Shown here piece after piece: positions 1,519 to 55,226 of a stretch of 64,000 bases of DNA (position 1 is the first letter of the stretch; every line of letters starts with the position of its first letter). Under the pieces are notes generated by a model. The model did no database searches. It was not told where the DNA came from and worked only from the letters and a program-made list of their open reading frames with translations. The DNA comes from an uncultured Rikenellaceae bacterium (lineage in GTDB: Bacteria > Bacteroidota > Bacteroidia > Bacteroidales > VadinHA17). The stretch lies in assembly GCA_963696805.1 (NCBI GenBank), contig CAVOLF010000006.1, positions 167,023-231,022 of the forward strand, read 5' to 3'. The translations under genes and the position numbers were made by a program.

Positions 1519-1633
1519 AGGCAATTGGCAGTAGGCAGTAGGCAGTAGTAGTCAGTTGGAACAAGCTGTAAGTTGTTGATTAGCAAAATTCAGAGGACAT
1601 AATTTTCACTATTGCCTATTGCCTACTGCCTGA
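1519..1633. repeat. inverted heptamer arrays (GGCAGTA x3 at 1527-1547; TATTGCC/TACTGCC x3 at 1610-1630) forming a potential 21-bp stem
   Basis: Read directly from the sequence. The arrays fill the spacer between the stops of convergent genes at 1515 and 1634. The arms pair at 21/21 positions if two G-T(U) wobbles are allowed, with a loop of about 62 nt. Confidence 0.85.
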
Positions 1634-2755
1634 TTATTTTCCAATAATGAAATTCGACGGCAAGGTCACGGTAGTGCCGAACTGGTATACCAGCTTGCGG
1701 GCAGTGCAGAGAGTTTCATCTCCCATGCTTACCCTGAACCCGGCCACATCAGGCACACGGTAATAGAGCCTGTCACGGGTTGCAAGATCCTTCTGAGAGG
1801 TGACCGGCTTTACCACCAGCTTCAGCTCCCCGGTCTTGCCTGTAGGCTTCATCTCAACCTGCACCGGTTGGCCTCCGGCTTCGCCGGCAGGCCGCACCCC
1901 CTTGCTCTCTGAGAAACTGAATATGGCTGTCTGTTTCCCCGCCATTGAAAGGTCAGGCGTGAGCCAGATGCGGAAGTGTTTGGTCTCCGACCATGTCTTG
2001 CCGGCAAAAAGCGCTGTGTATTCGCGTTCCAGCCTGTTTATCTCGTTTATTGCGGCACCGTCCTGCGGGAAGATATTCGTTTCGCCGGTGAGTATCATAT
2101 GTCTCCCCTCCCGCAGCTCGAGCAGCCTGTCAGCAGCCTCTCTTGCCTCCTCCTCCACCGTCATTCTCTTTTTTTTCTGAACAAGATAGGGCACCCGTAT
2201 GAATGCGGTATCGGCCTTGATAACCCTGTAGGCTGTGTCGGTCAGGGTAGAGACATAATCATATGCCCCCCTGTCAGGGAACATCAGTCCACGGATGTCA
2301 GTGCCCTGCTGCAGATTCGAGTGTCCTGTGCGGGAATAGATATCCGGGTTTATGTCGAGTATCAATCCGTTCTCTTTCAGGGCCAGAAGATTAGTCTGCA
2401 TCAGGCTAGTGCCCTGGATGACATAATACTGCGCAGGGTCAAGCTCCTCAATGGTTTTAATTCTCACGTCGGTGAGCGTCCAGGTCTCATTCCCGGCGGT
2501 GATTATATTGTCGAGCCCTATCATCTCACTGGCATAACCTGCAAACGGACCCGGGATCTCAGTTCTCTTTTCGGCAATGATATCAAATTCCAGCACCGTC
2601 TGCGGCAGGGCATAGACAATGCTCCCTTCTGTCACCCTTACTTCCCCTCCCAGTGGAAGAACTAAAATATCACTGTCACTGTTATTGTTCATTACTGAGC
2701 ATCCGCCGGTGACTGCCAATAAAGCCCCTGATATGACAATTGCAAGTCTTTTCAT
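1634..2755 (-). CDS. hypothetical lipoprotein (possibly DUF4831 family; name from memory, unverified)
   Basis: 373-aa ORF with the lipoprotein signal MKRLAIVISGALLAVTGGCS. No catalytic motif recognised. Confidence 0.65.
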   Translation of the reverse strand: MKRLAIVISGALLAVTGGCSVMNNNSDSDILVLPLGGEVRVTEGSIVYALPQTVLEFDIIAEKRTEIPGPFAGYASEMIGLDNIITAGNETWTLTDVRIKTIEELDPAQYYVIQGTSLMQTNLLALKENGLILDINPDIYSRTGHSNLQQGTDIRGLMFPDRGAYDYVSTLTDTAYRVIKADTAFIRVPYLVQKKKRMTVEEEAREAADRLLELREGRHMILTGETNIFPQDGAAINEINRLEREYTALFAGKTWSETKHFRIWLTPDLSMAGKQTAIFSFSESKGVRPAGEAGGQPVQVEMKPTGKTGELKLVVKPVTSQKDLATRDRLYYRVPDVAGFRVSMGDETLCTARKLVYQFGTTVTLPSNFIIGK

Positions 2756-2764
2756 CTCTGTTGT

Positions 2765-4294
2765 TTAAAGGTACATGCTGAAACTGTTGAACTGCGTTTC
2801 ACGAAAAGCCCTGCCTATATTCATCAGAATATCTCCGGCTATAACTGACTCCTCCGAGTGTATTCTCAGGGCCACGTCGCCTGCCACCCCGTGAAGGTAT
2901 ACTCCGGCAACTGCTGCATCGGCAGGGCCATAACCCTGTGCCAGCAATGAGGCGATCATTCCTGTCAGCACGTCGCCGCTGCCACCGGTGGCCATGCCCG
3001 GGTTGCCCGTGCTGTTGAAATAGACCTCGCCTCCGGGCAGGGCAATGGAGGTATGGGCTCCCTTTACAACCACGATGCAATTATGCCTGGCAGCGAACTC
3101 CCGCTGCTCTTCCATAAGCCTGAAGTCACTGCTGTCTGTCGCGGCCAGACGGCGGAACTCTCCGGGATGAGGTGTCAGCACTGTACCAGGTGGAATCAGA
3201 TCAAGCAGTTCCCTGTTCCGGGCCATGATGTTAAGTGCATCAGCATCAAGCACAAGTGGTATGGTGGCGGTCTCAAGCAAGGTCCTCAGCACCCCGGCAG
3301 TGTCAGGGTCAGTGCCCAGTCCCGGGCCTACTCCTGCCGCATCAAACGGAGTCAGGTCAGGCATCACGGTCACGTTGCCTGTTCCCGGATCCGGTGAGAC
3401 CATAGCCTCCGGCAGTGATGCCTGCAGAGCCATCACGGCGGAGGTGGGAGTATGCACGGTCACCAGTCCGGCACCGCTGCGCAGAGCGGCCCCGGCAGCC
3501 AGTGTGGCGGCCCCGGCCTTGCCGTAACTGCCGGCAATGATCAGGGCATGACCAAAAATGCCCTTGTGATCAAATTTCTTCCTCTTTTGAAGGAGCGGCC
3601 TGACATTCTCTCTCATTACATAATGGTATGGCGAGGGCATGGAGGCGATGGTCGCGGCATGCAGGCCGATGTCAATCACCTCCCATCTGCCTGCCTGATC
3701 TTCATTCCCGGCAAACATGAAGGCAATTTTGGGAAACTGGAATGTGATGGTCTGTGAAGCCCTGACCATCCTGTCGCGGTCAACACCGTTGTTGTCCTCG
3801 CAGAAAAGCCCGGAGGGGACATCGACTGAAACAACATATGCACCCGTCTGATTGATCTTTTTGATGACCTCAGCAGCCACACCCGCCGGAGCCTTGCTGA
3901 GCCCCGTTCCGAAAATGGCGTCAATGATCACCTCATCACGGCCGATGACGGGAAAGAGCCCGGGATCGGCCAGGGTGAGCGGCGATACGCCCGCTCTCTC
4001 AAGCCGGTCGGCATTCAACCTGAATTCGCTGCTGTGGGCAGAACCTGTCTCTACAATGAATACGCGCACAGGATGGCCTTCATCATACAACAGCCTGGCA
4101 ATCACCAGCCCGTCACCACCGTTGTTACCGGGGCCGGCAAACACGTTGACCTTCTTTTCAGGCGGCAGGGTGTCCTTCAGCCTCTCAACAAACGTTGTGG
4201 CAGCACGCTCCATCAGCCCTGCCGGCGTTACAGGCTCAAGACGGACAGTGGCTGCATCAATCTCCCTTATCTCTGCAGATGTGAAAATCTTCAT
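2765..4294 (-). CDS. nnr: bifunctional NAD(P)H-hydrate epimerase / ADP-dependent (S)-NAD(P)H-hydrate dehydratase
   Basis: N-terminal YjeF_N motif VFAGPGNNGGDGLVIARLL and C-terminal kinase-fold motif GGSGDVLTGMIASLLAQG. I chose the start at MKIFTSAEIREID (ATG at 4294), 15 codons inside the longest ORF. Confidence 0.9.
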   Translation of the reverse strand: MKIFTSAEIREIDAATVRLEPVTPAGLMERAATTFVERLKDTLPPEKKVNVFAGPGNNGGDGLVIARLLYDEGHPVRVFIVETGSAHSSEFRLNADRLERAGVSPLTLADPGLFPVIGRDEVIIDAIFGTGLSKAPAGVAAEVIKKINQTGAYVVSVDVPSGLFCEDNNGVDRDRMVRASQTITFQFPKIAFMFAGNEDQAGRWEVIDIGLHAATIASMPSPYHYVMRENVRPLLQKRKKFDHKGIFGHALIIAGSYGKAGAATLAAGAALRSGAGLVTVHTPTSAVMALQASLPEAMVSPDPGTGNVTVMPDLTPFDAAGVGPGLGTDPDTAGVLRTLLETATIPLVLDADALNIMARNRELLDLIPPGTVLTPHPGEFRRLAATDSSDFRLMEEQREFAARHNCIVVVKGAHTSIALPGGEVYFNSTGNPGMATGGSGDVLTGMIASLLAQGYGPADAAVAGVYLHGVAGDVALRIHSEESVIAGDILMNIGRAFRETQFNSFSMYL

Positions 4295-4394
4295 AGTGTA
4301 AATATAGGTCCCAATAATACAAATGTAAAAATATAACAATGCAAAATTATTGCGCTGATGTTATAATGCAATGATTGCAAATTAAAAAGATTAA

Positions 4395-4402
4395 TATATT
4401 TG
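4395..4402 (+). promoter_or_regulatory. Bacteroidota -7 promoter box TATATTTG (TAnnTTTG consensus)
   Basis: Exact consensus match 42 nt upstream of the POT transporter start at 4444, in an AT-rich spacer. Confidence 0.5.
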
Positions 4403-4443
4403 TCACCAACTGAACGAAAATAATCAATTAAATACAGAAAATT

Positions 4444-6243: not shown

Positions 6244-6261
6244 GACTGTATCTCTGTATCA

Positions 6262-6292
6262 GGAGAGCCGCCACAAGCGGCTCTCTTTTTTT
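6262..6292 (+). terminator. rho-independent terminator after the POT transporter
   Basis: AGAGCCGC-CACAA-GCGGCTCT stem-loop followed by C + T7, about 20 nt after the stop. Confidence 0.7.
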
Positions 6293-6339
6293 ATGTCACT
6301 ACATGTGCCAAATCAGTACCGAAAAAAAAGAATAAATCA

Positions 6340-6347
6340 TATATTTG
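6340..6347 (+). promoter_or_regulatory. -7 promoter box TATATTTG
   Basis: Exact TAnnTTTG match 21 nt upstream of the 6368 start. Confidence 0.4.
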
Positions 6348-6367
6348 TCAATTCATATTAAAATGCA

Positions 6368-6601: not shown

Positions 6602-6778
6602 TCCGTTGATTTTCCCGGGGTCTCCATACCACTTGCCGGTCATAGATTATAATGATGGCATGTGCTTTGTATCTCACCTTTTAAGATACGTTACGAAAAT
6701 TAACTCCCCTATGGGAGGCGAGATTGAGAGATAATTATTAATATTGTGGCTCATAGTAAGTTGAAAAGCGGGGAGAGT

Positions 6779-12239: not shown

Positions 12240-13016
12240 ATGGCAAAAGAAAAGAAACGATACCCAAGCTTCGATGACATAGTATTCGAAGGCCGGAACA
12301 AGGAATACGGTGCCTATGACCTCAGAAAGAGATATTCACGGACAATGAGCCTTTCAATACTCATTGGAATAATCGTAGTACTGACGGCAGCCATCGTACC
12401 TTACATCAAGGCAAAGAACATTGCCCAGATCAAGGCAAGAGATGCCAATGAAGTCATAGCCCAGATGGCTAATGACATCAACCAGGAGGAGGCAGCTCCC
12501 CCACCCCCGCCGCCACCCCCACCGCCAACAGAACAGCAGACCGTTGTCAAATATGTGGCCCCGGTGGTTGTCGATTCTGTCAAACCTGATGAAGAAACAA
12601 GGTTCATGACCGCTGACGACGTGGTCGAGACCATTGTTGACGCAGATGTTGTGGAAGTAATCGAAACGGTGAAGGAGGAGATACAGGAAGAAGCCCCGCA
12701 GGAGGTGTTTGTAGTTGTGGAAGAGATGCCCTCATTCCCCGGTGGGGATGCCGAACTCTTCAAGTTCATCTATGCAAACATCAAGTATCCCGAGCTCGCG
12801 AAGGAAAACAACATCCAGGGCAAGGTAATACTTCGCTTCTGCGTGACCTACAAGGGAAAAGTTGACCAGGTATCCGTAGTCAGGGGTGTTGACCCGTCTC
12901 TCGACGAGGAGGCCATCAGGGTCATTAAGATGCTCCCCCTCTGGAAACCCGGCAAACAGGGTGGTAAACCCGTTAACGTCTGGTACAGCGTGCCTATCAG
13001 CTTCCAGCTGAAGTAA
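12240..13016 (+). CDS. tonB: energy transducer TonB
   Basis: N-terminal TM anchor, a Pro10 linker (12498-12527), and the C-terminal TonB_C motif FPGGDAELFKFIYANIKYPELAKENNIQGKVILRFCV. Confidence 0.85.
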   Translation: MAKEKKRYPSFDDIVFEGRNKEYGAYDLRKRYSRTMSLSILIGIIVVLTAAIVPYIKAKNIAQIKARDANEVIAQMANDINQEEAAPPPPPPPPPPTEQQTVVKYVAPVVVDSVKPDEETRFMTADDVVETIVDADVVEVIETVKEEIQEEAPQEVFVVVEEMPSFPGGDAELFKFIYANIKYPELAKENNIQGKVILRFCVTYKGKVDQVSVVRGVDPSLDEEAIRVIKMLPLWKPGKQGGKPVNVWYSVPISFQLK

Positions 13017-22300: not shown

Positions 22301-23064
22301 ACATGAGTATCTCAGGAGACACCCCCTGGGCTCTCAGGAAGAAGTTACTCAAGCCTGGCGTGCATCTGCTTGAATGGATCTACAAAAAGGATGTATCCCT
22401 GTCAGGAGGGCTTGACGCCGCATGGATTGACATGATCACCTTCCCTGATATATCATTCCTTGAGGCTGACCTGCACATAGATACAGTCTACCCGCCTCCC
22501 CCTTCGGCAGTGCTGAATGATGTGATCATAACCGGACGCGTGATCAATTTCGGCAGGAACGCCCTTACTAGCTTCCCGCTGGCATACCGCATCAATGAAG
22601 GGGAACTGGTCAATGAGACCTTCTTCAGAAAAATCGATCCGGGCGACACGTTAGAGGTTGCATTCACTCAGAAATGCAACCTGCTGCCGGATGTAGGCTA
22701 TAAGATATACATATTCAACCGCCTGCCTGAAGATGGTTATGCAGGAAATGATACTGCCTTTGTCTCATTCATAAAATCCGGAACCGGACCTGAGATCAGC
22801 GAGGAATCGGTAAGGGTCCTCCCCAACCCGTTCAGTGAAAGCTTTGTACTTGAACTCGATTTTGACGGTGAAGAGAATACAACCGTTGAAATTATCGACT
22901 CCGGAGGAAGGGTTGTGCTGAGAAGAGCACCTGGGCTGGTACCCGGCAGAAACCGTATCCCGTTCGATTGCCGTCACCTTGCCTCAGGCGTCTACACGCT
23001 AAGGATCAAGCAGGGAGGGAGGAGTATCGCGCTGAAGGTGGTTAAAACCCAGGCAGTATATTAA
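19318..23064 (+). CDS. C25-family (gingipain-type) cysteine peptidase with T9SS C-terminal sorting domain
   Basis: 1248 aa. Propeptide-like MPELPVYSQLVEVPEG. C25 core LLIVGDPAIIPTAK...SDLYYGEFDG...FIGRLPV, with catalytic-type NYTGHGEA and IANACRTAQ. The C-terminus VRVLPNPFSESFVLELDF...LASGVYTLRIKQ is a Por secretion tail. Confidence 0.85.
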   Translation: MRVTYRVIVLSTALLMLFSRPDAKAQAFNGSAVGESAAERSSRPAATRSYHAEEPQFRKITDPSGKYVRMLIPGHHHTSETGMPELPVYSQLVEVPEGMEVKVSLSGISSRRIRLTVQGAGDAELFPAQPARTKNEIQDEKVTFKDRKAYGTRGVITHDTVVIRYEGIHRGRRLASIAVYPAFYDPKGGYVDLITSMEMDIRFEPSPVKGDEEESVKSEKGGYASDAYVPGYSDKPVQMIIVTDSAFTRHLAPLVRWKLLKGILTTVISKKTGPPDSVYHDLKRRISEVWFNSLDSDNPVQYLLIVGDPAIIPTAKVTTNVSDLYYGEFDGEGDYIPELFIGRLPVSDTTQLKGMVKKIIDYETWNYGPSNDFWAGAVTTAGNAPGFELYMNGQVKYIYDNYLGKDTSLKAVRWLYPEAQLKDDSLKTLFNKGLAILNYTGHGEAAGFSDPQFRASMVSDLTNVNEYPLIIANACRTAQISVTPCFATSMMNATGKGAIGYIGCTNDSYWVDDFFWAVGPGTPGLDVTYETSGKGAFDRLFHTHEEPPGEWYHTMGQINFSGNLSVSASTSPRKRYYWETYILLGDPSLSPVIGRPEPFDVDIPRTIPQELTSLSFFADPFSYAALSDFDNLWDAKFISPSGNISLAIPPGVKDSCLLVITGQNKLPFIKTVYFGTVPGAFLTVENTVLDDFAGNRNGIPEYGEVIRLIVTLKNLGQSASQQIQAAISATSGMITVESGTASVGTLLPGASFTITGNFIFSVSDQVEDGELASLLLTLTDNSKQYKFGIDMTLHAPQLEILSSVHDDLNSGNANFLPDPGEKINLIVKVKNVGSSAASGQVTVTPSGPWLTLQEPELPTGVIEPGKEKSVNFEALISDLALSGTVIPYNVRFVCGHYEAEGAWSISTGKTRETWEFNRFDIFPWIQRPEYPWTITSSSSYENVLSARSGIIPDKSETVLSIYVNNPVADTISFYSRTSSEPIYDELIFKIDSVVDMSISGDTPWALRKKLLKPGVHLLEWIYKKDVSLSGGLDAAWIDMITFPDISFLEADLHIDTVYPPPPSAVLNDVIITGRVINFGRNALTSFPLAYRINEGELVNETFFRKIDPGDTLEVAFTQKCNLLPDVGYKIYIFNRLPEDGYAGNDTAFVSFIKSGTGPEISEESVRVLPNPFSESFVLELDFDGEENTTVEIIDSGGRVVLRRAPGLVPGRNRIPFDCRHLASGVYTLRIKQGGRSIALKVVKTQAVY

Positions 23065-23068
23065 TTAT

Positions 23069-23151
23069 GAATTAGGAATTTAGAATTAAGAATTGATAAT
23101 CAGTCTCTTAGACTGCTGACTGAAGACTGAATATGGACCTTCAGACCTAAG
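23069..23151. repeat. heptamer word arrays: GAATTAG/GAATTTA/GAATTAA/GAATTGA (23069-23096), GACTGCT/GACTGAA x2 (23111-23131), GACCTTCAGACC (23136-23147)
   Basis: Read directly from the sequence. Occupies the 96-nt spacer between the C25 peptidase stop and the HD gene start. Confidence 0.8.
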
Positions 23152-23160
23152 ATAGTCATT

Positions 23161-23745
23161 ATGGTAAGCATCAAACCAACCCGTAAAGAAGCCCTGGAGC
23201 TTTTCAGAAAATATAACAAGTCGGACAGCCTGTACAAGCATGCGTTGTCCGTGGAAGCCGTAATGAGATACATGGCCCGCAAGCACAGTGAAGATGAGGA
23301 GATGTGGGGCGTGATAGGCCTTATTCACGATCTCGATTACGAGATGTACCCTGACCAGCACTGCACCATGACCGAAAAAATAATGAGGGAAGAGGGCTGG
23401 CCTGAAGAGTACATCAGGGCCGTAATAAGCCACGGCTACGGCATCTGCTCCGACACTGAACCTCAGACACTGCTTGAAAAAACACTCTTCGCCATCGACG
23501 AGCTGACCGGACTGGTCACTACAAGTGCCCTGGTCAGACCGTCACGCAGCGTGCTTGACATGGAGGCCCGTTCAGTGCGCAAGAAATGGACCGATAAAAG
23601 ATTTGCCGCAGGTGTCGACCGTAGTGTAATTGAACAGGGCGCCGCCCGCCTGGGCGTTGACCTGAATGACCTGATAGCAGACACCATAGCGGGCATGCGT
23701 GAAGCAGCAGACGAAATAGGCCTGAGAGGAACACCCCAGCTGTAG
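23161..23745 (+). CDS. HD/HDIG-domain metal-dependent phosphohydrolase
   Basis: 194 aa, with HALSVEAVMRYMA ... GLIHDLDYE (the H...HD motif pattern). Confidence 0.8.
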   Translation: MVSIKPTRKEALELFRKYNKSDSLYKHALSVEAVMRYMARKHSEDEEMWGVIGLIHDLDYEMYPDQHCTMTEKIMREEGWPEEYIRAVISHGYGICSDTEPQTLLEKTLFAIDELTGLVTTSALVRPSRSVLDMEARSVRKKWTDKRFAAGVDRSVIEQGAARLGVDLNDLIADTIAGMREAADEIGLRGTPQL

Positions 23746-23750
23746 AATTT

Positions 23751-23813
23751 TCGATTGCCGATGTGCGATTGCCGATTATCGGATCACCCATTCGCAAATC
23801 GCAAATCGCAAAT
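23751..23813. repeat. heptamer/14-mer arrays: CGATTGCCGAT x2 (period 14) and CGCAAAT x3 (23793-23813)
   Basis: Read directly from the sequence, immediately 3' of the HD gene stop and abutting the terminator hairpin. Confidence 0.8.
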
Positions 23814-23850
23814 AAAAAGGGCGTCCTGATGATTACCAGGCGCCCTTTTT
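23814..23850. terminator. bidirectional rho-independent terminator
   Basis: A5-GGGCG(T)CCTG-loop-CAGGCGCCC-T5, between the convergent genes ending at 23745 (+) and 23871 (-). Confidence 0.7.
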
Positions 23851-28947: not shown

Positions 28948-29946
28948 ATGAAGCTTTGGGAAAAACATGAAAATGATGACAAGCTGAAATGTCTTCTCTG
29001 CCCCCATTCGTGCCTGATATCCCCGGGCGGAAGAGGAGTGTGCGGCGTGAGAGAGAATCGTGGCGGTGAAGTGTTGCCGGTCACATATGGTGTCATTTCA
29101 GGCTTTGCCCTCGACCCGATAGAGAAGAAACCGCTGTATCATTTCTTCCCGGGCAGTTCCATATTGTCAGTGGGATCATATGGATGCAACCTTAAATGCG
29201 ACTTTTGCCAGAATTTCCACATTTCACAAGATGTTCACCCCGGCAGTTCACGGCATATGTCACCGGAGGAGCTTGTCAGACAGGCCCTAACGGCTCCGGG
29301 TAACAGCGGCCTGGCCTACACCTACAATGAACCGGTGATCTGGTTTGAATATGTCAATGACTGTGCAAGCCTGGCAGCTGCTGAGGGTCTTCATAACGTG
29401 ATGGTCACCAACGGGTACGTTAACGGTGATCCGCTTGCTGAACTGATCAAGGTCATTGATGCATTCAACATCGACCTGAAAGCCTTCAGCAATGAATTTT
29501 ACAGACGGTACGCTGGAGCCACGCTCGGACCCGTGCTGGAGGCTATAAAAATGGTTGCATCCTCAGGAAGGCATCTCGAGATAACAACCCTCATCATCCC
29601 GGGCCTGAACGACTCGGAAGATGAGATAAGGCGGGAAGCTGAATGGATTGCGTTGAACGCCGGCAGACGCGTGCCCCTGCACCTGAGCCGTTATTTCCCC
29701 ATGTACAGGAGGAGCAGCCCTCCCACCCCTGCGGAAACAATACTGAGACTGAAAGAGATCGCGAATGAATATCTTGATTTTGTTTATACAGGTAACCTGG
29801 CGGGAACAGAATCGGGCAGCGACACCCTGTGCCCGTCATGTCACTCTGTGATTGTAAGCAGAGCGGGTTATAATACTACGGTGACGGGCCTCTCGGACGA
29901 CGGCCGGTGTATGAATTGCAATGCGGAAATAATGAGATGGGTGTAA
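28948..29946 (+). CDS. amrS: AmmeMemoRadiSam-system radical SAM enzyme (PFL-activase-like)
   Basis: N-terminal Cys cluster CLLCPHSCLISPGGRGVCGVR. Radical-SAM CX3CX2C motif (GCNLKCDFCQN). Length and layout match the family. Confidence 0.8.
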   Translation: MKLWEKHENDDKLKCLLCPHSCLISPGGRGVCGVRENRGGEVLPVTYGVISGFALDPIEKKPLYHFFPGSSILSVGSYGCNLKCDFCQNFHISQDVHPGSSRHMSPEELVRQALTAPGNSGLAYTYNEPVIWFEYVNDCASLAAAEGLHNVMVTNGYVNGDPLAELIKVIDAFNIDLKAFSNEFYRRYAGATLGPVLEAIKMVASSGRHLEITTLIIPGLNDSEDEIRREAEWIALNAGRRVPLHLSRYFPMYRRSSPPTPAETILRLKEIANEYLDFVYTGNLAGTESGSDTLCPSCHSVIVSRAGYNTTVTGLSDDGRCMNCNAEIMRWV

Positions 29947-29949
29947 GAG

Positions 29950-30250
29950 TCGAAAGTATGTAAAGTCAAAATTCTGAAGGCCTTAGGTCTGAAGGTCAGA
30001 GGTCTGAGTTCTGAGCTCGAAGGTCAGAGGTCTGAGGGATTTGCGAATTGCGATTTGCGAATTTTGCATAATCGACAATCGAAAATCTGAAATCGAAAAT
30101 TCCTCTATTGCCTCCCCTGCAATCTGGCTGCTTAGCTAAAATGGCCCGCCAGCTGGCGGATCACTTCTTAACGCTCGCCCCTCTACTGCCTAAAATGACT
30201 GCCGACTGAGGACTGGTTTTGACTGCCGACTGAAGACTGAGGACTGTCGA
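29950..30250. repeat. 301-nt mosaic of heptamer word arrays
   Basis: Blocks read directly: AAGTC block 29949-29971, (G)GTCTGA(A/G) block 29973-30037, TTGCGAA/TTGCGAT block 30039-30066, ATCGAAA block 30070-30100, GACTGNN x7 at 30197-30251, and a central 14-bp palindrome CCGCCAGCTGGCGG at 30146-30159. The mosaic fills the whole convergent spacer. Confidence 0.85.
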
Positions 30251-30538
30251 CTAACCTTTAGAGATCTTACTGAGCCGTTCGAAATAGCCGTCTACCTTTT
30301 CAAGGAGGTCTTTCTGCAAGGTAGTGTAGTAGGCCTTGACCAGTGCCGGATTGTCTTTTCCATCAGGGTTGTTGACCCTGTCAATGAAATCATTGCGCAT
30401 ACTCACTGCCTCTTCTATCAGATCCTGTACTTCTTTTTTCTTTGGGCCTTCATGGAGGCTTGTGAACATGAAGCAGTCGGAGATAAGTTCAAAAAAGAGA
30501 TAGTCTATATCCTTCTTAAGGTTTTTTATACTGGCCAT
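30251..30538 (-). CDS. small hypothetical protein (95 aa, helical, charged)
   Basis: ORF directly downstream of the class IV aminotransferase on the same strand. A CAAAGATA (TAnnTTTG on the minus strand) box lies at 30555-30562. No family recognised. Confidence 0.55.
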   Translation of the reverse strand: MASIKNLKKDIDYLFFELISDCFMFTSLHEGPKKKEVQDLIEEAVSMRNDFIDRVNNPDGKDNPALVKAYYTTLQKDLLEKVDGYFERLSKISKG

Positions 30539-38370: not shown

Positions 38371-38376
38371 AATCCA

Positions 38377-38578
38377 CAGTCTTCAGTCGGCAGTCGGCAG
38401 TCGGCGAAGTCCACTGTCTGAAGGTCTGAAGTCAAAAGGTCTTGCCGGCCTGCAGTCTAAAATTCTAATTATCAGTTCGCAAATCTTAATTCTTAATTTC
38501 ACTACTGCCTATAGTCTCTTGCCTATTGCCTGACTTGACTGAGGACTGAGGACTGAGGACTGAGGACTGTAGACTGAC
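38377..38578. repeat. mosaic of heptamer word arrays
   Basis: Blocks read directly: CAGTCTT/CAGTCGG x3 (38377-38404), GTCTGAAG x2 (38416-38431), AT-rich TTCTAAT/TCTTAAT words (38458-38500), TACTGCC/TATTGCC words (38501-38530), GACTGAG x4 + GACTGTA + GACTGAC (38537-38578). Lies in the convergent spacer between the genes ending at 38370 (+) and 38667 (-). Confidence 0.85.
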
Positions 38579-38666
38579 CTTCACAGGCCAAGCATGTCCA
38601 TGACCCCGTTGATGAAGGTCAGCGGATGTGCAGGGTGCCCGGAGATGGTATGAACAGGCTGTTCCG

Positions 38667-46047: not shown

Positions 46048-46136
46048 GTTTTAAGTTAATAGAAACAGTAGTTGCTCTAATTAACGCAAGAATAAGGCCA
46101 AAGGTTGCACCAAAATGAATAAATGGGATGCTTTTT

Positions 46137-46667
46137 CTACTTTTTTGCCAGTTCGGCGAAGATCACATCCTTCATTTTATCAAACTCTTCACGGTCGAAC
46201 AGGCGTGTCAGGAAGATGATCCTGCCTTTCCTGTCGATGATGACATTGCGGGTGACGCCGGCTTCCTTCTGTGCAAAGAGCCCGAAGATATCAGCTCCCG
46301 GGTCGAGGGCCAGCGGATAGGTAATCTTCATGTTATCCTTAAAGCTGAGCACCGTAGCCTCAGGTTCATCACGGTCAATGCCTATTACCACAAGCCCCTT
46401 TTCCTTGCCCGGGATCCATATTTCATCCTCAATGAATGGCATCTCCTTGCGGCACACCCCGCACCAGCTCGCTGTGAACTGCAACATGACAACCTCTCCG
46501 CGGAGATCTGCCAGGTTATAGGTCTCTCCGCCGGCTTCCCTGATGGTAAAATCCGGAGCAGTGTCGCCGACCTTCACCAGGTAACCGTGCTCATATACCT
46601 TCTGCTCCTGTGCGTATGCCATGCAGGTGATCATGGCAGCTGCCGCAAGTATTACAAGTTTTTTCAT
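46137..46667 (-). CDS. TlpA-family thiol:disulfide oxidoreductase (redoxin/AhpC-TSA fold)
   Basis: Signal peptide and the thioredoxin active site FTASWCGVCRKEMP. Confidence 0.85.
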   Translation of the reverse strand: MKKLVILAAAAMITCMAYAQEQKVYEHGYLVKVGDTAPDFTIREAGGETYNLADLRGEVVMLQFTASWCGVCRKEMPFIEDEIWIPGKEKGLVVIGIDRDEPEATVLSFKDNMKITYPLALDPGADIFGLFAQKEAGVTRNVIIDRKGRIIFLTRLFDREEFDKMKDVIFAELAKK

Positions 46668-46723
46668 TTCCCTTTTAGTTCATGGTCCAAAAATACAATT
46701 TTTGTTGTGTGGGGCGCAATTCA

Positions 46724-46925
46724 AAGTCATAAAGTCCGGAAAGTAGAAAGTCCGGAAAGTCATATAAGTCGAAAGTCTCGAAAGTCCGGAAAGTCAGTAA
46801 AGTCGAAAGTCTCGAAAGTCCGGAAAGTCAGTAAAATCGGATAATTGCAAATCGAAAATTTGAGCCTGCGACCAAGGAGCAGGATCAATCCCGCACACGC
46901 AGTGTCGGGACGAAAATCGCAAATT
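46724..46925. repeat. AAGTC-word array including a perfect 34-bp tandem duplication (46766-46799 and 46800-46833), then ATCGAAA/CGCAAAT words
   Basis: Read directly. AAGTC recurs at spacings of 7,9,9,9,7,9,9,9. The unit is AAGTCGAAAGTCTCGAAAGTCCGGAAAGTCAGTA x2. Located between the tandem minus-strand genes. Confidence 0.85.
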
Positions 46926-47324
46926 CTAATTATCCTCCTCCTTCAGAATCGAGAGGTAGCCGCTGCTCCGGCGGAGCTCAAGATACCCTCTCCCTGCCTC
47001 CCTGAAGCCATACTCAAAACAGTAGGCCCACCTTATTCCCTCCTGCGTTTCAACAAGGTGTGTAAAAAAGGTGAAGTTGTAACCCTGAGCAATGAGCGCA
47101 TCACGGTGAATACGCCCGTGTCCGTCGTCAAGAAGATCAGCCAGTATCTTGCGGTTACGCCTCAGCTGGGCATGAACGTTTCGTACATAGTTATTCTGAT
47201 CGCGGTTAATGCGGTTGTTGTAGTTATTCCGGCACTGATCGGAACAGAATTTCTTATCAGACCGGCCCAGGAGCCTGGCCCCGCAGTCAAGACATACTCT
47301 TTCCACAGCGTAATGTTTGATCAA
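46926..47324 (-). CDS. hypothetical zinc-ribbon protein
   Basis: 132-aa ORF with CLDCG...CSDQC (a four-Cys ribbon) at the N-terminus. No family name recognised. Confidence 0.6.
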   Translation of the reverse strand: MIKHYAVERVCLDCGARLLGRSDKKFCSDQCRNNYNNRINRDQNNYVRNVHAQLRRNRKILADLLDDGHGRIHRDALIAQGYNFTFFTHLVETQEGIRWAYCFEYGFREAGRGYLELRRSSGYLSILKEEDN

Positions 47325-47505
47325 ATTTACAAAATATTTTATTAAGCATAATCGCTTATCATATTGATTATGATAATTAAAAGCGTTTACAAACGGATAT
47401 AAACGACTGCTAACCGGATAGAAATGATTATCAACCGGATCATATGGTTAAGAGGGTGCACTTTTGTATCGTTAACAGCATTAATAACCTTAAATCAAAA
47501 AAATC

Positions 47506-50418: not shown

Positions 50419-50534
50419 ATATTTTTAGCTTTTCGGATTTACTTGTCTGATGACAGTAAAGATGATTAAAGTTAAGTTAAAATCTAGAATCAAATGTCAT
50501 TATTGTTTACTTTACAGCGCAAAATTATCTGTCA

Positions 50535-51215
50535 TTGAAGAAGTTTTTGGTGATTTGTGTCATGCTTGCGGTTTCATTTGCTCATGCCGGCGCCCAGGAT
50601 GACGACAGGAGGTTTATTCAGATCGATGGGCTGACAGCTGACGATCAGGGATTCATTGTACCTGATGTAAGCATATATTCGAAACATCTCCGACGCGGCG
50701 CCGCAAGCGATCACAGGGGTATCTTCTCAATCATAAGCGCCCCGGGCGATACAATATTTTTCAGCGCCATAGGCTACAAGTCCACCCTGCTTACCATACC
50801 GCCATCAATTACCGGGAATCACTTTATAACAGATGTCATTATGGTTACTGACACCATACAGATCGGAGAAGTGCTTGTGCTGCCCTGGAAGACCTACTCA
50901 GAGTTCAAGAGGGCTGTGGTGGAAAACAAACCTGTTGATCCGCTGATGGAGAATATGGAATACAACCTGGCGCTCGTGGAGCAGCAGATATGGAGTGACA
51001 TGCGCGCCACTCCGGGCGAAGCTTACAGGTACACCATGCAGCAGATGGCTGATAATCTCTACACACGCGGACAGATGCCATCCAACAACCTTCTTAACCC
51101 GTTCGCATGGCAGAAATTTGCTCGCGAGGTCAAGAACGGACTGCTGAAGAATGAGCCCACCAAAAGCTCCAAGGTAAAAAAGAGCAAGGTCCGGAAGAAA
51201 AAAAAGAATGACTGA
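50535..51215 (+). CDS. carboxypeptidase-regulatory-like domain protein (secreted)
   Basis: TTG start gives the signal peptide MKKFLVICVMLAVSFAHAGAQ. CarboxypepD_reg-like IQIDGLTADDQGFIVPDVSIY...GIFSIISAPGDTIFFSAIGYKS. The stop overlaps the downstream receptor start. Confidence 0.65.
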   Translation: MKKFLVICVMLAVSFAHAGAQDDDRRFIQIDGLTADDQGFIVPDVSIYSKHLRRGAASDHRGIFSIISAPGDTIFFSAIGYKSTLLTIPPSITGNHFITDVIMVTDTIQIGEVLVLPWKTYSEFKRAVVENKPVDPLMENMEYNLALVEQQIWSDMRATPGEAYRYTMQQMADNLYTRGQMPSNNLLNPFAWQKFAREVKNGLLKNEPTKSSKVKKSKVRKKKKND

Positions 51216-53626
51216 TGGCACGGTCATCATTGATAAAATCTCTTCTCACATTACTTTTTCTGATAATAACAACAATGATCCTTTCAGGACAGGAGAGGAT
51301 GCTCAGGGGCATTATATCCGATTCTGCCGGGTACGCCATTCCGGGTGCAACTGTACACATTCCGGGCACGCAGAAAGGAACAGTCAGCGGAAGTGACGGC
51401 AGATTCGCCCTTGCCCTGGATACGGAGACAAGGAGAGTGATCTTTTCCTGTGTCGGTTACACGACTGACACACTCTTCATCAGACCCGGAGACCTGACGG
51501 ATAACCTGAGGGTCATCCTTAAGGGTATGACCATGGCTATCGATGGAGTGCAGGTCAGGGCCACCAGGCCTGATAACATAACCGTTATAAACATTCCTGC
51601 TGTCGCGGGCGCTGTCATCCCTTCCGTGACCGGTGGTGTTGAGTCGGCGATAACCACCCTTCCCGGAGTAGCATCCTACAGTGAACTCAGTTCCGGTTAC
51701 TCAGTCAGGGGAGGCAGCTATGATGAAAACCTTGTATACATAAATGGTGTTGAGGTATACCGGCCATATCTGATAAGGGCCGGACAGCAGGAGGGTCTGA
51801 GCAGGATCAACCCCGATCTCACCGCCTCAGTGAACTTCTCCCCCGGCGGCTTCAGTGCCTCATACGGCGACCGTATGTCATCAGTGCTGGATATCACCTA
51901 CCGCGAACCGTCAGAGAGCGAGGGGACAGTCTCTCTCAGTATGATCACATCTTCGGTATACGCCGGAACGCGAAGCACCAACAACAAGTTCTGGTTCATC
52001 GGAGGTGCCAGGTATCGCTCAAATGCCATCCTTCTTGGGAGCCTCGATACCAGGGGCGAATACAGTCCCCGTTTTGCCGACATCCAGGCCATCGCAGGAT
52101 ATCGGCCTGATGAGAGAACCACCATGACACTGTCGTTATGGGGCTCATCAAACAGGTACACCTTTATTCCGAGAAGCCAGACAACGACATTCGGAACCAT
52201 AGATAACGCCTACAGGCTCTACGCCTTCTTCGAAGGAGGCGAGCGTGACAGGTATGAGATCGGTGGCGGAGCCCTGGCACTGGATCTCAGGCATAATGAC
52301 AGGCTGTCTTCGAAGCTTATCCTTTCTGCCATGCTTGCTGACGAAAGTGAGAGTTATGATATACGCGGCGCCTATAGCCTCTCCTCACTTGACAGGACAG
52401 AAGGCACGGAAAACAATCCGGATTCCCTTCTCAATGCCGGCGCAGGAAGCTGGCTCACGCATGCGCGAAATAAGCTGAGAACAGGAATGGCCACTCTCTC
52501 ATACAGTGGGACGGCTGTGGCAGGCAGGAACGGTCTCGAGTGGGGAGTCACTGCCAGACACCGCACCCATGACATTGCCATGAATGAATGGCTGCGTGTC
52601 GATTCCGCCGGATACACTGTTAACGGAGCAGGTGAGGATCTGAGCCTGACTTCATATTCTGACCGAAGCCTGACAGCAGGCAGCTTCACCGCAGGGGCCT
52701 GGCTCATAAGCCGGAGCAGCTTTACCCTCGCCGGCAGGATGTGGGATTTAAATGCGGGCATAAGATCATCCTATGACACCTACAGTTCGGAGTTTCTCAT
52801 CTCCCCGAGGCTTTCCCTTACGGTGATGCTGACCCCCCGCACCTCAGCTTACATTGCGGCCGGAGCATATCATCAACCTCCCGGAGGCCGCGAGTTGATG
52901 ACCGGAACGCAGGACGGAAACCCGCTGCTGAAGGCACAGCGCTCTTATCACATCACTGCAGGAGCACGTTATGATTTCACAGCCTGGGAGAGACCGTTCA
53001 GGTTCACCGCTGAGGCATATGGCAAGCGCTTTAACAAGCTCGTACCGTATACGGTAGACAATGTCAGGCTTAGCTACTATGGAGGAAACATCGCAGAGGG
53101 TTACACCGCGGGCCTGGATATGAGGGTTAACGGTGAATTCGTTCCAGGGGTGGAATCATGGTTCAGTCTCTCACTGATGAAGTCGGAGCTGAAGATCCCC
53201 TCTATCAACTCGGGATGGTACCCCGCTCCGTTCGACCAGAGAGTGAATTTCAGCATCTTCTTTCAGGATTACCTGCCCGGACACCCTGATTTCAGGGCTC
53301 ATATCAATATTAACTTCGGCACTGGCATCCCGACATCACCCCCCGGAAGAGACCAATGGGATATATGGTTCAGGATGCCACCCTACAGGCGTGTCGACAT
53401 AGGCTTCTCTAAAGTCCTTACCAGAGTCGGCAGAGAGAAGGATGATAGCTTTTTGAAAGAACTCATTGCCGGAATTGAAATATTTAACCTTGCAGACATC
53501 AGGAACACAATATCCTATACCTGGATACGTACTGTAAAAAACAGTGAGGGGCAAACGCGTGAGTACGCCGTGCCGGTGTACCTCACCGGGAGAAGCCTTA
53601 ACCTGAAAGTGACAGCACGATTCTGA
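51215..53626 (+). CDS. TonB-dependent receptor (CarboxypepD_reg + plug + barrel)
   Basis: 803 aa. N-terminal LRGIISDSAGYAIPGATVHIPGTQKGTVSGSDGRFAL, a plug region, beta-strand pattern and the terminal ...LNLKVTARF. Confidence 0.85.
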   Translation: MARSSLIKSLLTLLFLIITTMILSGQERMLRGIISDSAGYAIPGATVHIPGTQKGTVSGSDGRFALALDTETRRVIFSCVGYTTDTLFIRPGDLTDNLRVILKGMTMAIDGVQVRATRPDNITVINIPAVAGAVIPSVTGGVESAITTLPGVASYSELSSGYSVRGGSYDENLVYINGVEVYRPYLIRAGQQEGLSRINPDLTASVNFSPGGFSASYGDRMSSVLDITYREPSESEGTVSLSMITSSVYAGTRSTNNKFWFIGGARYRSNAILLGSLDTRGEYSPRFADIQAIAGYRPDERTTMTLSLWGSSNRYTFIPRSQTTTFGTIDNAYRLYAFFEGGERDRYEIGGGALALDLRHNDRLSSKLILSAMLADESESYDIRGAYSLSSLDRTEGTENNPDSLLNAGAGSWLTHARNKLRTGMATLSYSGTAVAGRNGLEWGVTARHRTHDIAMNEWLRVDSAGYTVNGAGEDLSLTSYSDRSLTAGSFTAGAWLISRSSFTLAGRMWDLNAGIRSSYDTYSSEFLISPRLSLTVMLTPRTSAYIAAGAYHQPPGGRELMTGTQDGNPLLKAQRSYHITAGARYDFTAWERPFRFTAEAYGKRFNKLVPYTVDNVRLSYYGGNIAEGYTAGLDMRVNGEFVPGVESWFSLSLMKSELKIPSINSGWYPAPFDQRVNFSIFFQDYLPGHPDFRAHININFGTGIPTSPPGRDQWDIWFRMPPYRRVDIGFSKVLTRVGREKDDSFLKELIAGIEIFNLADIRNTISYTWIRTVKNSEGQTREYAVPVYLTGRSLNLKVTARF

Positions 53627-53672
53627 CATAATCGGATGTCATGCCGGTAATTATTTTTAATTTCGTACCCTG

Positions 53673-54418
53673 ATGAACAGGTTTGAGATAACATTTACGG
53701 CGGTAATGGCTACAATCCTCATACATCTGACTGTAGCCGTGATATTTATGTCCGTTAAGGTCTCAGCCATGAAGCGCGAGATAGCCGCCGAGATTATCCT
53801 GGCCGTGGAGGAGGAGACTGCCTGACCAGCGACCTGGAAAAGGCCATGGAGCTGGCAAAGAGCGATCACTTTAAGGACTTCACCCCGGAGGAGATGGTCA
53901 ATATTATCAAGAATCTCGCCGACAAGCCGATGGACATAGATCCGAAAGAGTATCAGGATATGGTCAAGGAGGAGATGATCAAAAGCGGCATGCTCGATGA
54001 GAGTAACTTCATCGATGATCAGAAGAGGGCTGAGAAGGCAGGAATGGAGGAGATAGCCTCCCTGCCGATACAGGACAAGCCCCAGGTGATTGAAAAAAAG
54101 GAAAGCGCGGCTGAAAAAGGCACCTTCAGGGGGCCCACACGTATCTTCTACGATCTTGCCGGGCGACATCATGTCTTTCTGCCGGTACCGATTTATAAGT
54201 GTGAGGGTGCGGGACAGATTACACTCACAATTGAGGTTGACAGAAACGGGAAATGTAATTAAAGCGCTCACCGGCACTCGGGACTTTCGACCACATCCGA
54301 TGCCTGTCTGACTGAAACGGCTGTGAATCATGCGTTGAGGACAAGATTTAATTCAGACCTCAGTGCTCCCTTAAAACAGGCAGGATTTCTGACATTCGTC
54401 TTTGTTTCCCAGCGTTGA
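53673..54418 (+). pseudogene. TM-anchored TonB/TolA C-terminal-domain protein, disrupted (N-terminal frameshift plus C-terminal TAA or a compensating indel pair)
   Basis: The TM anchor MNRFEITFTAVMATILIHLTVAVIFMSV (frame 0) stops at 53823, and the protein continues in frame 2 (LTSDLEKAMELAK...). Near 54250-54285 the frame-2 reading hits TAA (VDRNGKCN*), whereas frame 0 reads GNVIKALTGT. Frame 2 then resumes as SGLSTTSDACLTETAVNHALRTRFN...VSQR*. Confidence 0.6.
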
Positions 54419-54422
54419 TTTT

Positions 54423-55145
54423 TCAGAATAGCGTACCCTGGACAGGGTAATTGTATGGTTTTACCAGCTCTGGCCGGTTGCGGTCTCCTTTAGAATTGGT
54501 AATCAGCGGACTGATAGTATGGGCTGTAAGCATTTCTGTTGCGATCGGCTCCATCAGAGGAATGGCTGATGATTTTGCAAGCTCTTTCTTTAACCACAGT
54601 TTCTCAACTGATGCCGGGAGAATGACAGGCATCCTTTTCTTAGTGTTGTGAATCTCGGCCATCAATTCATTTGCACGGGTGGTTACTATTGAAAATGTAT
54701 TGACGGTGGCCCCTCCCTTAATCTTCCATGAATCCCATATGCCCGCAAGAGAGAATATCTCCTCCCCCTGAAGTCCGATGTACCATGGTATTTTCCTGCC
54801 ACCAATGTGCTGCCATTCAAAGAAGCCGCACAAAGGTACCAGGCAGCGCCTTGAAACAAAAGATTCCCTGAAGGCCGGCTTCAGGTCTATCGTCTCAGAG
54901 CGGGCATTGAAGGTCTTTATCCTCATTTCCTCAGCCTCGGCCTCATCGGCAGCCCAGGAAGGTATCAGCCCCCATTGCATAAGACGGATCTCCGCCGGGT
55001 TGTCTGAACAGATCACTGGCAGATGAGGAAAGCTGTGGGCATGGTAATAATAGCTCGGACGATATTTATCGGGATCCAGAAGTTCGGCCCCGTAACGCTT
55101 CTCCAGCTCCTCCTTTACAATATTTAAATTAACAGTAAAGCACAC
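54423..55145 (-). CDS. SOS-response-associated peptidase (SRAP/YedK family, abasic-site processing)
   Basis: GTG start followed by the catalytic Cys2 (MCFTV). Motifs MQWGLIPSWA and TFNARSETI. Confidence 0.85.
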   Translation of the reverse strand: MCFTVNLNIVKEELEKRYGAELLDPDKYRPSYYYHAHSFPHLPVICSDNPAEIRLMQWGLIPSWAADEAEAEEMRIKTFNARSETIDLKPAFRESFVSRRCLVPLCGFFEWQHIGGRKIPWYIGLQGEEIFSLAGIWDSWKIKGGATVNTFSIVTTRANELMAEIHNTKKRMPVILPASVEKLWLKKELAKSSAIPLMEPIATEMLTAHTISPLITNSKGDRNRPELVKPYNYPVQGTLF

Positions 55146-55188
55146 TTAGCCTAAACCTTAATCATTCATTAAATAAACTTTTGTGTTA

Positions 55189-55226
55189 CCTCAGCCTCAA
55201 CCTCAACCTCAGCCTCAGCCTCAGCC
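55189..55226. repeat. hexamer tandem repeat CCTCAG/CCTCAA x6
   Basis: Read directly. Lies in the spacer between the SRAP start (55145) and the stop (55227-55229) of the beta-lactamase-like pseudogene. Confidence 0.85.

Follow-up and report, generated by a model that had tools for sequence, protein, structure and literature searches.

What are the short tandem repeats that fill the spacers behind several genes of one Rikenellaceae bacterium, and what might they do there? The question was raised by a 64,000-nt stretch of DNA from an uncultured member of this group (the window), in which an earlier sequence-only reading had singled out seven intergenic spacers, called S1 to S7 here, that consist almost entirely of tandemly repeated words, most of them with a 7-nt period. 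The window was compared with loci from other assemblies, which carry L-numbers in what follows. The spacers are read here, tentatively and with less than even confidence, as a lineage-wide mosaic family of hairpin-prone intergenic repeats, comparable to the REP/BIME and BOX elements but assembled from heptad-periodic modules. In this reading the family is, at least partly, under selection.

Detection of the Arrays

Tandem Repeats Finder (TRF) called 14 period-7 arrays in the window, every one of them inside the seven spacers, and a period-6 array at 55189-55227; a typical array holds 3-6 units. A run scan of the window gave ten period-7 runs, against a mean of 0.82 and a maximum of three in 100 block shuffles, and a single period-8 run that was level with the shuffles. 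Periods 6, 9, and 12 were elevated as well, the source being codon periodicity inside genes. Tandem units of 5-11 nt that run longer than chance and lie mainly in non-coding DNA are the marks of long simple-sequence repeats (LSSRs), and both were observed here.

The density of the array words was 4- to 39-fold higher in spacers than inside genes. Different spacers were linked by numerous exact or near-exact matches of 16-24 nt, and the 14-mer AAATTCTAATTATC, said to be shared by two of them, was located exactly at 38460 and 46921 (chance expectation 0). The TRF calls, the shuffles, and these matches together bear out that the arrays form a dispersed, short-period family in which a few words keep coming back. 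These words are used in both orientations, and no array was found within an intact coding sequence, again as had been claimed. The periods needed some correction: the 6-nt array at 55189-55226 stood, and the array at 46723-46840 proved not to have a period of 7, its words being spaced 7-10 nt apart in a 34-nt super-repeat. The family itself had thus been recognized correctly, and what had been missed was the inverted symmetry with its hairpins, the non-periodic cores with terminator-like hairpins, the 70-170 nt composite modules that have copies at other loci, and the strong conservation of some modules.

A CRISPR array was ruled out, since the units measure 6-8 nt and lie head to tail without spacers, CRISPR arrays being composed of 25-40 nt repeats and unique spacers. 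The whole window gave no Rfam 15 match at gathering scores or at E ≤ 1, and no tRNA or tmRNA genes were detected in it. Scans for consensus promoters and terminators returned counts near the shuffle expectation, and an obvious terminator at 23814-23850 was missed by the scan.

Placement and Sense of the Words

In the gene map of the window, which holds 36 spacers of at least 40 nt, arrays were present in 7 of the 23 spacers that contain a gene 3' end and in none of the 13 divergent ones (Fisher p = 0.03). The proposed confinement to spacers with a gene 3' end therefore held when array positions were tabulated against stop codons and gene orientation. Divergent spacers of L505, L506, and L510 were likewise free of arrays (0/5, according to the source gene calls). 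The gene contexts were also as previously described: the spacers at 1516-1633, 29947-30250, and 38371-38666 are convergent, and those at 23065-23160, 46668-46925, and 55146-55471 are tandem. The arrays begin 1-8 nt past stop codons, and only S2 and S7 are also near a start codon. The statement that every array abuts a stop codon stands with two reservations, as the right edge of S5 meets the stop of a gene remnant and not that of the intact GH109 gene, and the stop next to S7 is that of the last fragment of a putative pseudogene.

Most modules are runs of 2-6 copies of a word of 7 nt, sometimes of 6 or 8 nt, and the words reduce to about five families. The family NNCAGTN comprises GGCAGTA, GGCAATA, GGCAGTC (equal to CAGTCGG by rotation), CTCAGTC, TTCAGTC, and GAAAGTC; the others are GGTCTGA(A), TTTGCGA with its near-complement TTTCGAT, GAATTAA/G, and a few 8-mers. 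TTTGCGA and AATCGAA are also near-complementary, TGCGATT and TTCGATT matching at 6 of 7 positions. Within single arrays of L332 and L428, in-register gradients of the type GGCAATA > GGCAGTA > GGCAGTC were observed.

Stop-proximal runs of the NNCAGTN family were in the AGT sense in every case read. This was observed on both sides of S1, S4, and S5 in the window and in L001-L004, L021, L505, L506, L508, and L510 (up to nine species), and also in four tandem spacers (L505:3519-3753, L505:9519-9715, L506:19139-19242, and L432:1538-1680), where it is not forced by symmetry. Since one sense follows each stop, a convergent spacer consists of two inverted halves and could form a long imperfect stem. 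Long stems were indeed predicted in S1, where a 23-bp stem is formed by inverted arms of 23 nt that are 91% complementary, and in S5, through an outer CAGTC/GACTG pairing. The RNA fold of S1 reached -50.5 kcal/mol (z = -7.9), and none of 200 shuffles folded equally well. Over whole spacers, folding was significant in S1 and S3 (z = -3.9 for the latter, with arms of 27 nt that are 74% complementary), weak in S5 (z = -2.2) and S6 (z = -2.3), and absent in S2 and S4. A G>C skew of the 5' arm was tried as a universal polarity rule and rejected, as it fails for the CAGTCCT/CAGTCTT arms of this clade, in which only the AGT sense holds.

Modules, Cores, and Terminators

The mosaic can be followed in S4 (29947-30250), a convergent spacer between a radical-SAM gene (stop 29946) and a gene for a 95-aa protein (stop 30251). 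Module A (AAGTCNN, 29948-29971) is followed by module B (GGTCTGA/GGTCAGA, 29985-30037), three copies of ATTTGCGA as module C (30039-30063), module D (AATCGAC-AATCGAA-AATCTGA-AATCGAA, 30070-30101), and a first module E (CTATTGCC, 30105-30112). A non-periodic part follows, with core X (30114-30131), the palindrome CCCGCCAGCTGGCGG (30145-30159), and core Y (30167-30182), and the spacer ends in a second module E (CTACTGCC, 30183-30190) and seven GACTGNN units as module F (30197-30250). The period-7 arrays delimited here by TRF lie at 29973-30037, 30041-30063, 30070-30100, and 30221-30252. No Pfam family matched the 95-aa protein next to S4 (30251-30538, minus strand), whose sequence shows 100% identity in L002 and 92-98% identity in L001, L003, and L004 and which is far better conserved than its neighbors.

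The non-periodic blocks between arrays were also found at other loci. A variable GC hairpin lies between block X (CCCCTGCAATCTGGCTGC) and block Y (GCTCGCCCCTCTACTGC) at 30114-30182 of the window, at L005:1752-1829, L506:11230-11300, and L003:17799-17836, and at L432:1553-1624, which is another locus. In S4 of L005 (AAAAATGCCT..AGGCATTTT) and in S1 of L506 (AAAATGCC..GGCATTTT), this hairpin is a bidirectional terminator. The X-hairpin-Y unit travels with GGCAGTA-type words, like a portable terminator cassette. A second core, Z (GCCCTACGGGC with A/T-rich flanks; CTACAATACTTTATGGCCTACGGCC), was detected in S4 of L001 and L002 and, non-orthologously, at L505:9519-9715 and L506:19139-19242. The core of S6 recurs at L341:7327-7363 (86% over 37 nt) with a compensatory change of CTGC/GCAG to CTCC/GGAG, and small palindromes of the TCCCGAC..GTCGGGA type occur in the cores. 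Arrays flank GC hairpins in unrelated organisms too (L231 and L375).

In S3, the arrays (23746-23813, plus strand) are located between the stop codon of the HD gene (23743-23745) and a bidirectional intrinsic terminator (AAAAAGGGCGTCC...GGCGCCCTTTTT, 23814-23850), just where the sequence-only reading had placed them. Judging from this position, between the stop codon and a conserved terminator, they would be part of the 3' untranslated region (UTR) of the HD gene. The terminator is conserved in five species (the window and L001-L004); in L001 and L004 it follows the HD stop alone, and the arrays are therefore additions to terminator regions. The content of S3 is a reverse-complement copy of modules C and D (TTTTCGATTGCCGATGTGCGATTGCCGATTAT, 23748-23779; ATTCGCAAATCGCAAATCGCAAAT, 23790-23813; TRF arrays at 23752-23777 and 23792-23813), which matched a profile of the C-D composite with E = 1.4e-20 (nhmmer).

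Copying Between Loci and Constraint

The C-D composite (~70 nt) was present in eight copies at four loci of five species, in both orientations, with a mean column identity of 74% and profile matches down to E 1e-20 (nhmmer). Orthologous copies are near-identical and more alike than the paralogous ones, in which the imperfect unit order GAC-GAA-TGA-GAA is nevertheless retained. The module order B-C-D-E-F of S4 was seen again at another locus of L432, and S2 and S5 of L004 share an H module in both orientations. Composite modules of 70-170 nt were copied to non-orthologous spacers. Modules A-H and cores X, Y, and Z thus recur between loci and species in both orientations, as the parts of a REP/BIME mosaic do. 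The conservation of at least one module far exceeds that of synonymous sites: when the window is compared with L004, module D is identical at 33/33 positions and module C at 21/22, compared with 131 of 316 four-fold sites (41%; range 37-47%) in four flanking genes, and the neutral probability of the identity of module D is ~1e-13.

Relatives and Turnover

Relatives were located with the radical-SAM protein (28948-29946) against one genome per species. The syntenic loci come from uncultured 'Rikenellaceae/Rikenella' and Bacteroidales metagenome-assembled genomes (MAGs), with identities of 86-91% (L001-L003 and L021), 72% (L004), or lower, and synteny extends over 20 kb. The Bacteroidota type of the genome, suspected beforehand, agrees with these closest loci and with the Pfam markers, namely a type IX secretion system (T9SS) sorting domain on a C25 peptidase, DUF4831, GH109, and a 3-keto-disaccharide hydrolase. 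Per 10 kb, 1.72 period-7 arrays were counted in the window, 1.88 in close relatives, 0.14 in other Bacteroidales, and 0.20 in other phyla, a density in the clade of the window that is about 10-fold that of other Bacteroidales, with the same word vocabulary at the same spacers. The orthologous spacers of L006 and L007 (61-66% identity) are without heptamer arrays. As the arrays are present in close relatives and rare beyond them, they are a property of a clade and not of one assembly. The contig end of L006 (19700-19769) is a period-8 array, GGCCGGAAGACCGGAA.

Orthologous spacers also differ. The hairpin of S1 is built from other words in L505, L506, L510, and L508: GGCAGTA in the window corresponds to CAGTCNN in L505 and L510, GGGAGTA in L506, and GGTCTGA/AGTCTAA in L508. 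The orthologous S4 spacers of six species carry arrays of the same vocabulary, with one, two, three, or four units in the E array depending on the species, and the orthologous S5 spacers of L001, L002, and L004 contain AAGTCNN, GGTCTGA, TCTTAAT, and CTACTGCC words. Presence itself varies, L001 having no arrays at S2 (a 17-nt spacer) and S3, and L004 none at S3. Unit number shifts in 7-nt steps, as replication slippage predicts, and the changes of unit number and word are marks of slippage and turnover. At orthologous spacers, where a test of word order had been proposed earlier, some modules, such as C-D, are fixed, but words are swapped and unit numbers vary between species.

An origin of the arrays as assembly or sequencing artifacts of short-read metagenomes has next to no credibility. 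Arrays occupy the orthologous spacers of more than eight assemblies, made independently in different projects, and both their modules and the genes beside them are conserved; the arrays are therefore real, and their existence as an artifact is refuted. What speaks for artifacts is that the contigs of relatives end in arrays (L021, with a 967-nt contig, L006, and L508/L509) and that a run of N separates duplicated array blocks at L003:4075-4180. As assemblies break or gap inside arrays, exact copy numbers could be wrong, and those of MAGs are not to be trusted without long reads.

Comparison With Known Repeats

Heptamer arrays as such are commonplace, and the arrays of the window belong to a known class. 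According to Mrazek, Guo and Shah (2007, as cited in PMC4679880), heptanucleotides are the commonest class of LSSRs in prokaryotes, and polymerase slippage was proposed for the excess of 7-nt units. These repeats resemble the window arrays in being tandem 7-nt units beyond chance that are mostly intergenic, and their phylogenetic distribution is sporadic. Unlike them, the window arrays combine many words into ordered mosaics that show inverted symmetry and include non-periodic cores; they occur in 3' spacers only and conserve their vocabulary and some modules between species.

The sequence-only reading knew of no heptamer arrays in Bacteroidota, and this did not survive the literature search: TAACTGA direct repeats were reported in Beggiatoaceae, cyanobacteria, and five Bacteroidetes, and TAACTGA with 'other heptamer direct repeats' in spacers of Gramella, Aequorivita, Elizabethkingia, and Flexibacter (MacGregor, 2015, PMC4679880). 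Like the window arrays, the TAACTGA repeats are intergenic heptamer direct repeats, and those of Gramella, Aequorivita, and Elizabethkingia differ between close relatives; each set has one word, mostly just upstream of start codons and in forward orientation, whereas the window arrays follow stop codons and use many words. Binding of the proteins S1, Csp, or CsrA to TAACTGA repeats was proposed in the same work, and a preprint on Nostoc described regulatory effects of heptamer repeats and postulated a binding partner. In the window, TAACTGA occurs as six single copies and no tandem dimers.

Knowledge of tandem heptamers in bacteria goes back to about 1990 and the STRR sequences of heterocyst-forming cyanobacteria, with the units CCCCAGT (STRR1), TTGGTCA (STRR2), and CAACAGT (STRR3). 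The earlier analogy with STRR is fair in kind, as both consist of a few tandem heptamer words dispersed over many intergenic loci (here seven spacers in 64 kb, and likewise in relatives). Membership does not follow: compared by their units, the STRR1-3 sequences have only 4-5 single occurrences each in the window and no tandem dimer, the words differ, and the host belongs to another phylum. A shared CAGT/ACTG core that would tie the words to STRR1, STRR3, and TAACTGA was also rejected. Viral contigs held 81 loci with four CAGTCNN units, but at least 120 with the reversed control (CTGACNN) and 61 with the shuffled control (GCTACNN), so that control cores are equally or more frequent overall.

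Three GGCARTA units in tandem were found at at least 120 metagenome loci; among the matches listed, GC content ranged from 31 to 72% and each organism had its own companion words, and only L432, L341, L332, and L325 shared both the vocabulary and the cores of the window. The CAGTCNN arrays of unrelated organisms showed no orientation rule at 3' ends (9 sense vs. 14 antisense, with noisy open reading frame (ORF) calls). For this mosaic family, no description was found in the searched literature. We know of no established role for heptamer repeats, nor of a reason for their abundance in particular lineages.

REP/BIME elements of enterobacteria and BOX elements of Streptococcus pneumoniae are extragenic, lie after genes or within operons, and are absent from promoters. 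They consist of few modules in alternating orientation, form hairpins, and are conserved as families across related species, and the REP unit is a ~35-nt imperfect palindrome mobilized by a RAYT transposase. The window arrays are similarly extragenic mosaics placed after genes, prone to form hairpins and conserved at the level of the family. They differ from REP in their units, which are heptad arrays, and in that no RAYT gene or defined unit was found in the window or the related loci.

Inverted Arrays Around PF05635 Genes

Among the 120 GGCARTA matches listed, three loci (L358, L394, and L420; GC 0.68, 0.38, and 0.59) hold a gene between (GGCAGTA)n and (TACTGCC)n. The enclosed gene encodes a 23S rRNA intervening-sequence protein, a four-helix-bundle protein of the family PF05635 (23S_rRNA_IVP; E = 2e-40), at L358:909-1402, L394:1-480, and L420:1-460. 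Additional PF05635 loci were collected (L440-L504, gene at about 1501-1850 in most), to give a sample of 53 non-redundant loci. As these were chosen by protein similarity alone, the sample is unbiased regarding repeats. An inverted match between the upstream and downstream flanks (ungapped score ≥ 14) was detected in 36/53 loci and in 0/93 controls, which were windows shifted by 900 nt, with medians of 17 and 7. A strong upstream tandem run was present in 24 loci vs. 1/93 controls and had period 7 in 21 of the 24, and G exceeded C in the 5' arm of 35/36 cassettes (p = 1e-9). PF05635 genes are thus usually enclosed by inverted tandem arrays of lineage-specific heptamers, and no report of heptad-periodic flanks of these genes was found in the searched literature. 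In 23S rRNA intervening sequences, for example those of Coxiella, RNase III is known from experiments to cleave the stem into which the inverted ends on either side of such genes fold (PMC4990558).

The cassettes share with the window the order of 5' array, loop, and inverted 3' array, the period of 7, and, in three of them, the word GGCAGTA itself. The window hairpins differ in that they enclose no gene and do not lie in rRNA. A single clear PF05635 locus without flanking arrays was also found (L438/L439:1340-2015), apparently inside the reading frame of a PglX-like (BREX/type IIG) methyltransferase; the translation of its flank contains GCMFGRYSLD. At L428:2125-2882, inverted GGCAGTA/GGCAGTC arrays lie ~590 nt apart around two ORFs of 49 and 75 aa, which may be another kind of cargo between array arms.

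Anatomy of the Remaining Spacers

S1 (1516-1633) separates the convergent glycosyltransferase (stop 1515) and DUF4831 (stop 1634) genes. Its 5' arm, GGCAATT-(GGCAGTA)x3 (1518-1549), is followed by a 58-nt loop and by the 3' arm, (CTATTGC)x2-CTACTGC (1608-1631), and TRF arrays were called at 1518-1548 and 1609-1631. S2 (23065-23160, plus strand) is a tandem spacer between the C25 peptidase/T9SS gene and the HD gene. It contains GAATTAG/GAATTAA words (23069-23094), the series CAGTCTC-tta-GACTGCT-GACTGAA-GACTGAA (23101-23131), and GACCTTCAGACC (23136-23147), directly upstream of the HD start codon, with TRF arrays at 23063-23094 and 23110-23131. Its modules are common to the orthologous spacers of L002, L003, and L004, and the stretch GACCTTCAGACCTAAGA is 17/17 identical to L004.

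S5 (38371-38583) begins after the stop of an M20 peptidase gene (38370) and is bordered on the right by a gene remnant (38584-38666) that precedes the stop of the GH109 gene (38667). Its words are CAGTCTT-(CAGTCGG)x3 (38377-38405), GTCTGAAG (38416-38433), TTCTAAT/TCTTAAT (38463-38498), CTACTGCC/CTATTGCC (38502-38530), and (GACTGAG)x5 (38537-38576), with TRF arrays at 38384-38405, 38484-38498, 38502-38531, and 38537-38577. The remnant, of 85 nt, corresponds to the 3' end of another minus-strand gene, which is intact at the same position in L003, L004, and L007; GH109 seems to have replaced or displaced it in the window, L001, and L002.

S6 (46668-46925, minus strand) is a tandem spacer between a gene for a 132-aa protein (stop 46926) and a peroxiredoxin gene (start 46667). 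It consists of an array of AAAGTCNN(N) words (46723-46840), in which TRF resolved the 34-nt higher-order repeat into 3.5 copies with 89% matches, and of a non-periodic core (46859-46910) with the hairpins TCCCGAC...GCGGGA and CCTGC...GCAGG, bordered at both ends by C/D/G-type words. The long plus-strand ORFs at 46128-46844 (238 aa) and 46845-47345 (166 aa), which have no Pfam match, arise from the array and from the antisense of real genes, as the minus strand opposite encodes the peroxiredoxin and the conserved 132-aa protein. They are spurious, in line with the earlier statement that arrays generate such ORFs, and are likely sources of false gene calls.

S7 is a hexamer array, (CCTCAG/CCTCAA)x6.5 (55189-55226, minus strand), within the tandem spacer 55146-55471. 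It lies directly after the stop of a beta-lactamase-family fragment (55227-55406) and 44 nt upstream of the start of the SRAP gene (55145). The hexamer unit equals the GACTGAG word minus one base, and on this similarity of words S7 would belong to the family. The beta-lactamase-family gene as a whole (55227-56530, minus strand) is frameshifted and split into at least four ORFs (152, 107, 114, and 59 aa), which suggests a pseudogene. Elsewhere in the window, an ORF at 12240-13016 holds a CCCCCA/CCACCG repeat with period 6/12 (12498-12527). This ORF matches by position the TonB-related gene next to ExbD/ExbB in syntenic loci, and the repeat probably encodes a proline-rich linker; it has no relation to the arrays of the spacers.

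Interpretation

In the reading proposed at the outset, the word runs are set around non-periodic cores with a GC hairpin, which in several copies is a canonical bidirectional terminator. The arrays would be transcribed as 3' UTR and would serve as long stems in addition to, or in place of, terminator hairpins. As periodic arms pair in any register, such stems would tolerate slippage; the elements would grow and shrink by slippage and would occasionally be copied between spacers. Most likely, the role of the arrays is to form such long stems, tolerant of register, at the 3' ends of RNAs, and 3'-end protection, a termination back-stop between convergent genes, or RNase III entry sites are possible functions. 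Several results weigh against this reading. Both the transcription of the arrays and their effect on RNA 3' ends are steps that we infer. S2 and S4 as wholes folded no better than shuffles (z = -0.7 and -0.9), and S3 keeps a canonical terminator, so arrays are not needed there for termination. The consensus hairpin of the C-D composite has 11 invariant pairs and no compensatory change, a lack of covariation that places conservation at the level of sequence and fits protein recognition at least as well as an RNA stem. Copying left no target-site duplication at filled vs. empty S2 and S3 sites and no sharp element ends, and no transposase or RAYT-like gene was detected in the 64 kb of the window or in related loci. 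The statistics cover these 64 kb and ~150 kb of partly orthologous relatives. Finally, no PF05635 gene was found by profile search in the window or related loci, or in the orthologous S1 loops; with none in the available DNA of the lineage, the link to the cassettes is architectural only.

A rival view would take the arrays as neutral by-products of a high rate of heptanucleotide slippage, which survive only where they are harmless, downstream of genes, with a vocabulary that stems from a few seeds and mutation. The abundance of arbitrary-word heptamer arrays in viral contigs, the wide GC range of the GGCAGTA arrays among the matches listed, the differences in unit number and even word between orthologous spacers, the words that are one substitution apart (e.g., GGCAGTA and GGCAGTC), and the slippage mechanism suggested by Mrazek (2007, as cited in PMC4679880) all point in this direction. 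Neutrality would not predict the identity of module D, the unit order retained in its paralogous copies, the cores that accompany arrays to non-orthologous loci, the strict sense rule past stop codons, or the ~10-fold density in one clade, whose words stay the same as far as L004, where synonymous sites are near saturation. Slippage as the whole explanation is considered unlikely. The sequence-level conservation of C-D would agree with words that are binding sites of one or a few proteins that read ~7 nt per subunit and form a cis-regulatory code at gene ends, the candidate readers being a cold-shock/OB-fold protein on RNA, a ring-shaped oligomer, or a nucleoid-associated or termination factor on DNA. 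Words are kept across species while single arrays turn over, 3-6 units would be enough for cooperative binding, and protein partners were put forward for TAACTGA (MacGregor, 2015, PMC4679880) and in the Nostoc preprint. However, at least five unrelated word families would require several readers, orthologous S1 spacers use differing words by species, C-D stands in both orientations to transcription, which argues against a single-stranded RNA motif, and the window offers no candidate gene with a link to the arrays. We rate a code of this kind as more doubtful still. A ring-protein reader of the HutP or TRAP type, with 7-nt or 5-nt periodic RNA sites, was considered in particular and seems doubtful; the words have no common triplet.

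The copying itself could also be that of non-autonomous mobile elements, similar to miniature inverted-repeat transposable elements (MITEs) or REPINs and moved in trans by a transposase or by the machinery of the intervening-sequence protein cassettes, in which case the arrays would be repeats at or near their ends and host RNA would be affected only incidentally. Composite modules and cores at non-orthologous loci in both orientations, presence and absence between close species with clean 'empty' S2 and S3 sites in L001, and the inverted arrays that enclose a small gene in other bacteria would be expected of such elements. S1, S3, and S5 do have inverted arrays, but the ends of these are not sharply defined, and slippage blurs the element borders; the missing target-site duplications and transposase, already mentioned, count here as well, and the greater likeness of orthologous than of paralogous copies indicates that most copies are old and vertically inherited. 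We regard mobility as no more probable than the binding-site code. Lower still we place the broad proposal that bacterial heptamer arrays generally, STRR-type and window arrays alike, form the stems of cassettes that resemble intervening sequences and are tied to PF05635 (S23p, Avd-like). A PF05635 gene between inverted arrays would be the autonomous form and the window arrays gene-less derivatives, and the PF05635 protein, a pentamer that binds nucleic acids, or RNase III would act on the stems to shape mRNA 3' ends lineage-wide. The protein-site and mobile-element explanations overlap with the reading of the spacers as a mosaic, hairpin-prone repeat family, which remains the one preferred here.

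If the arrays were only tolerated products of slippage, they would still give rise to spurious ORFs and to contig breaks in MAGs of Bacteroidales. The worth of the finding is in its comparative material and in a testable tie to the PF05635 cassettes, an association which suggests that periodic stems are substrates of RNase III or of proteins. The window and its relatives offer a tractable case, with a small vocabulary, a strict rule of placement and sense, inverted symmetry around terminator-like hairpins, a module under constraint, and orthologous spacers in many public MAGs.

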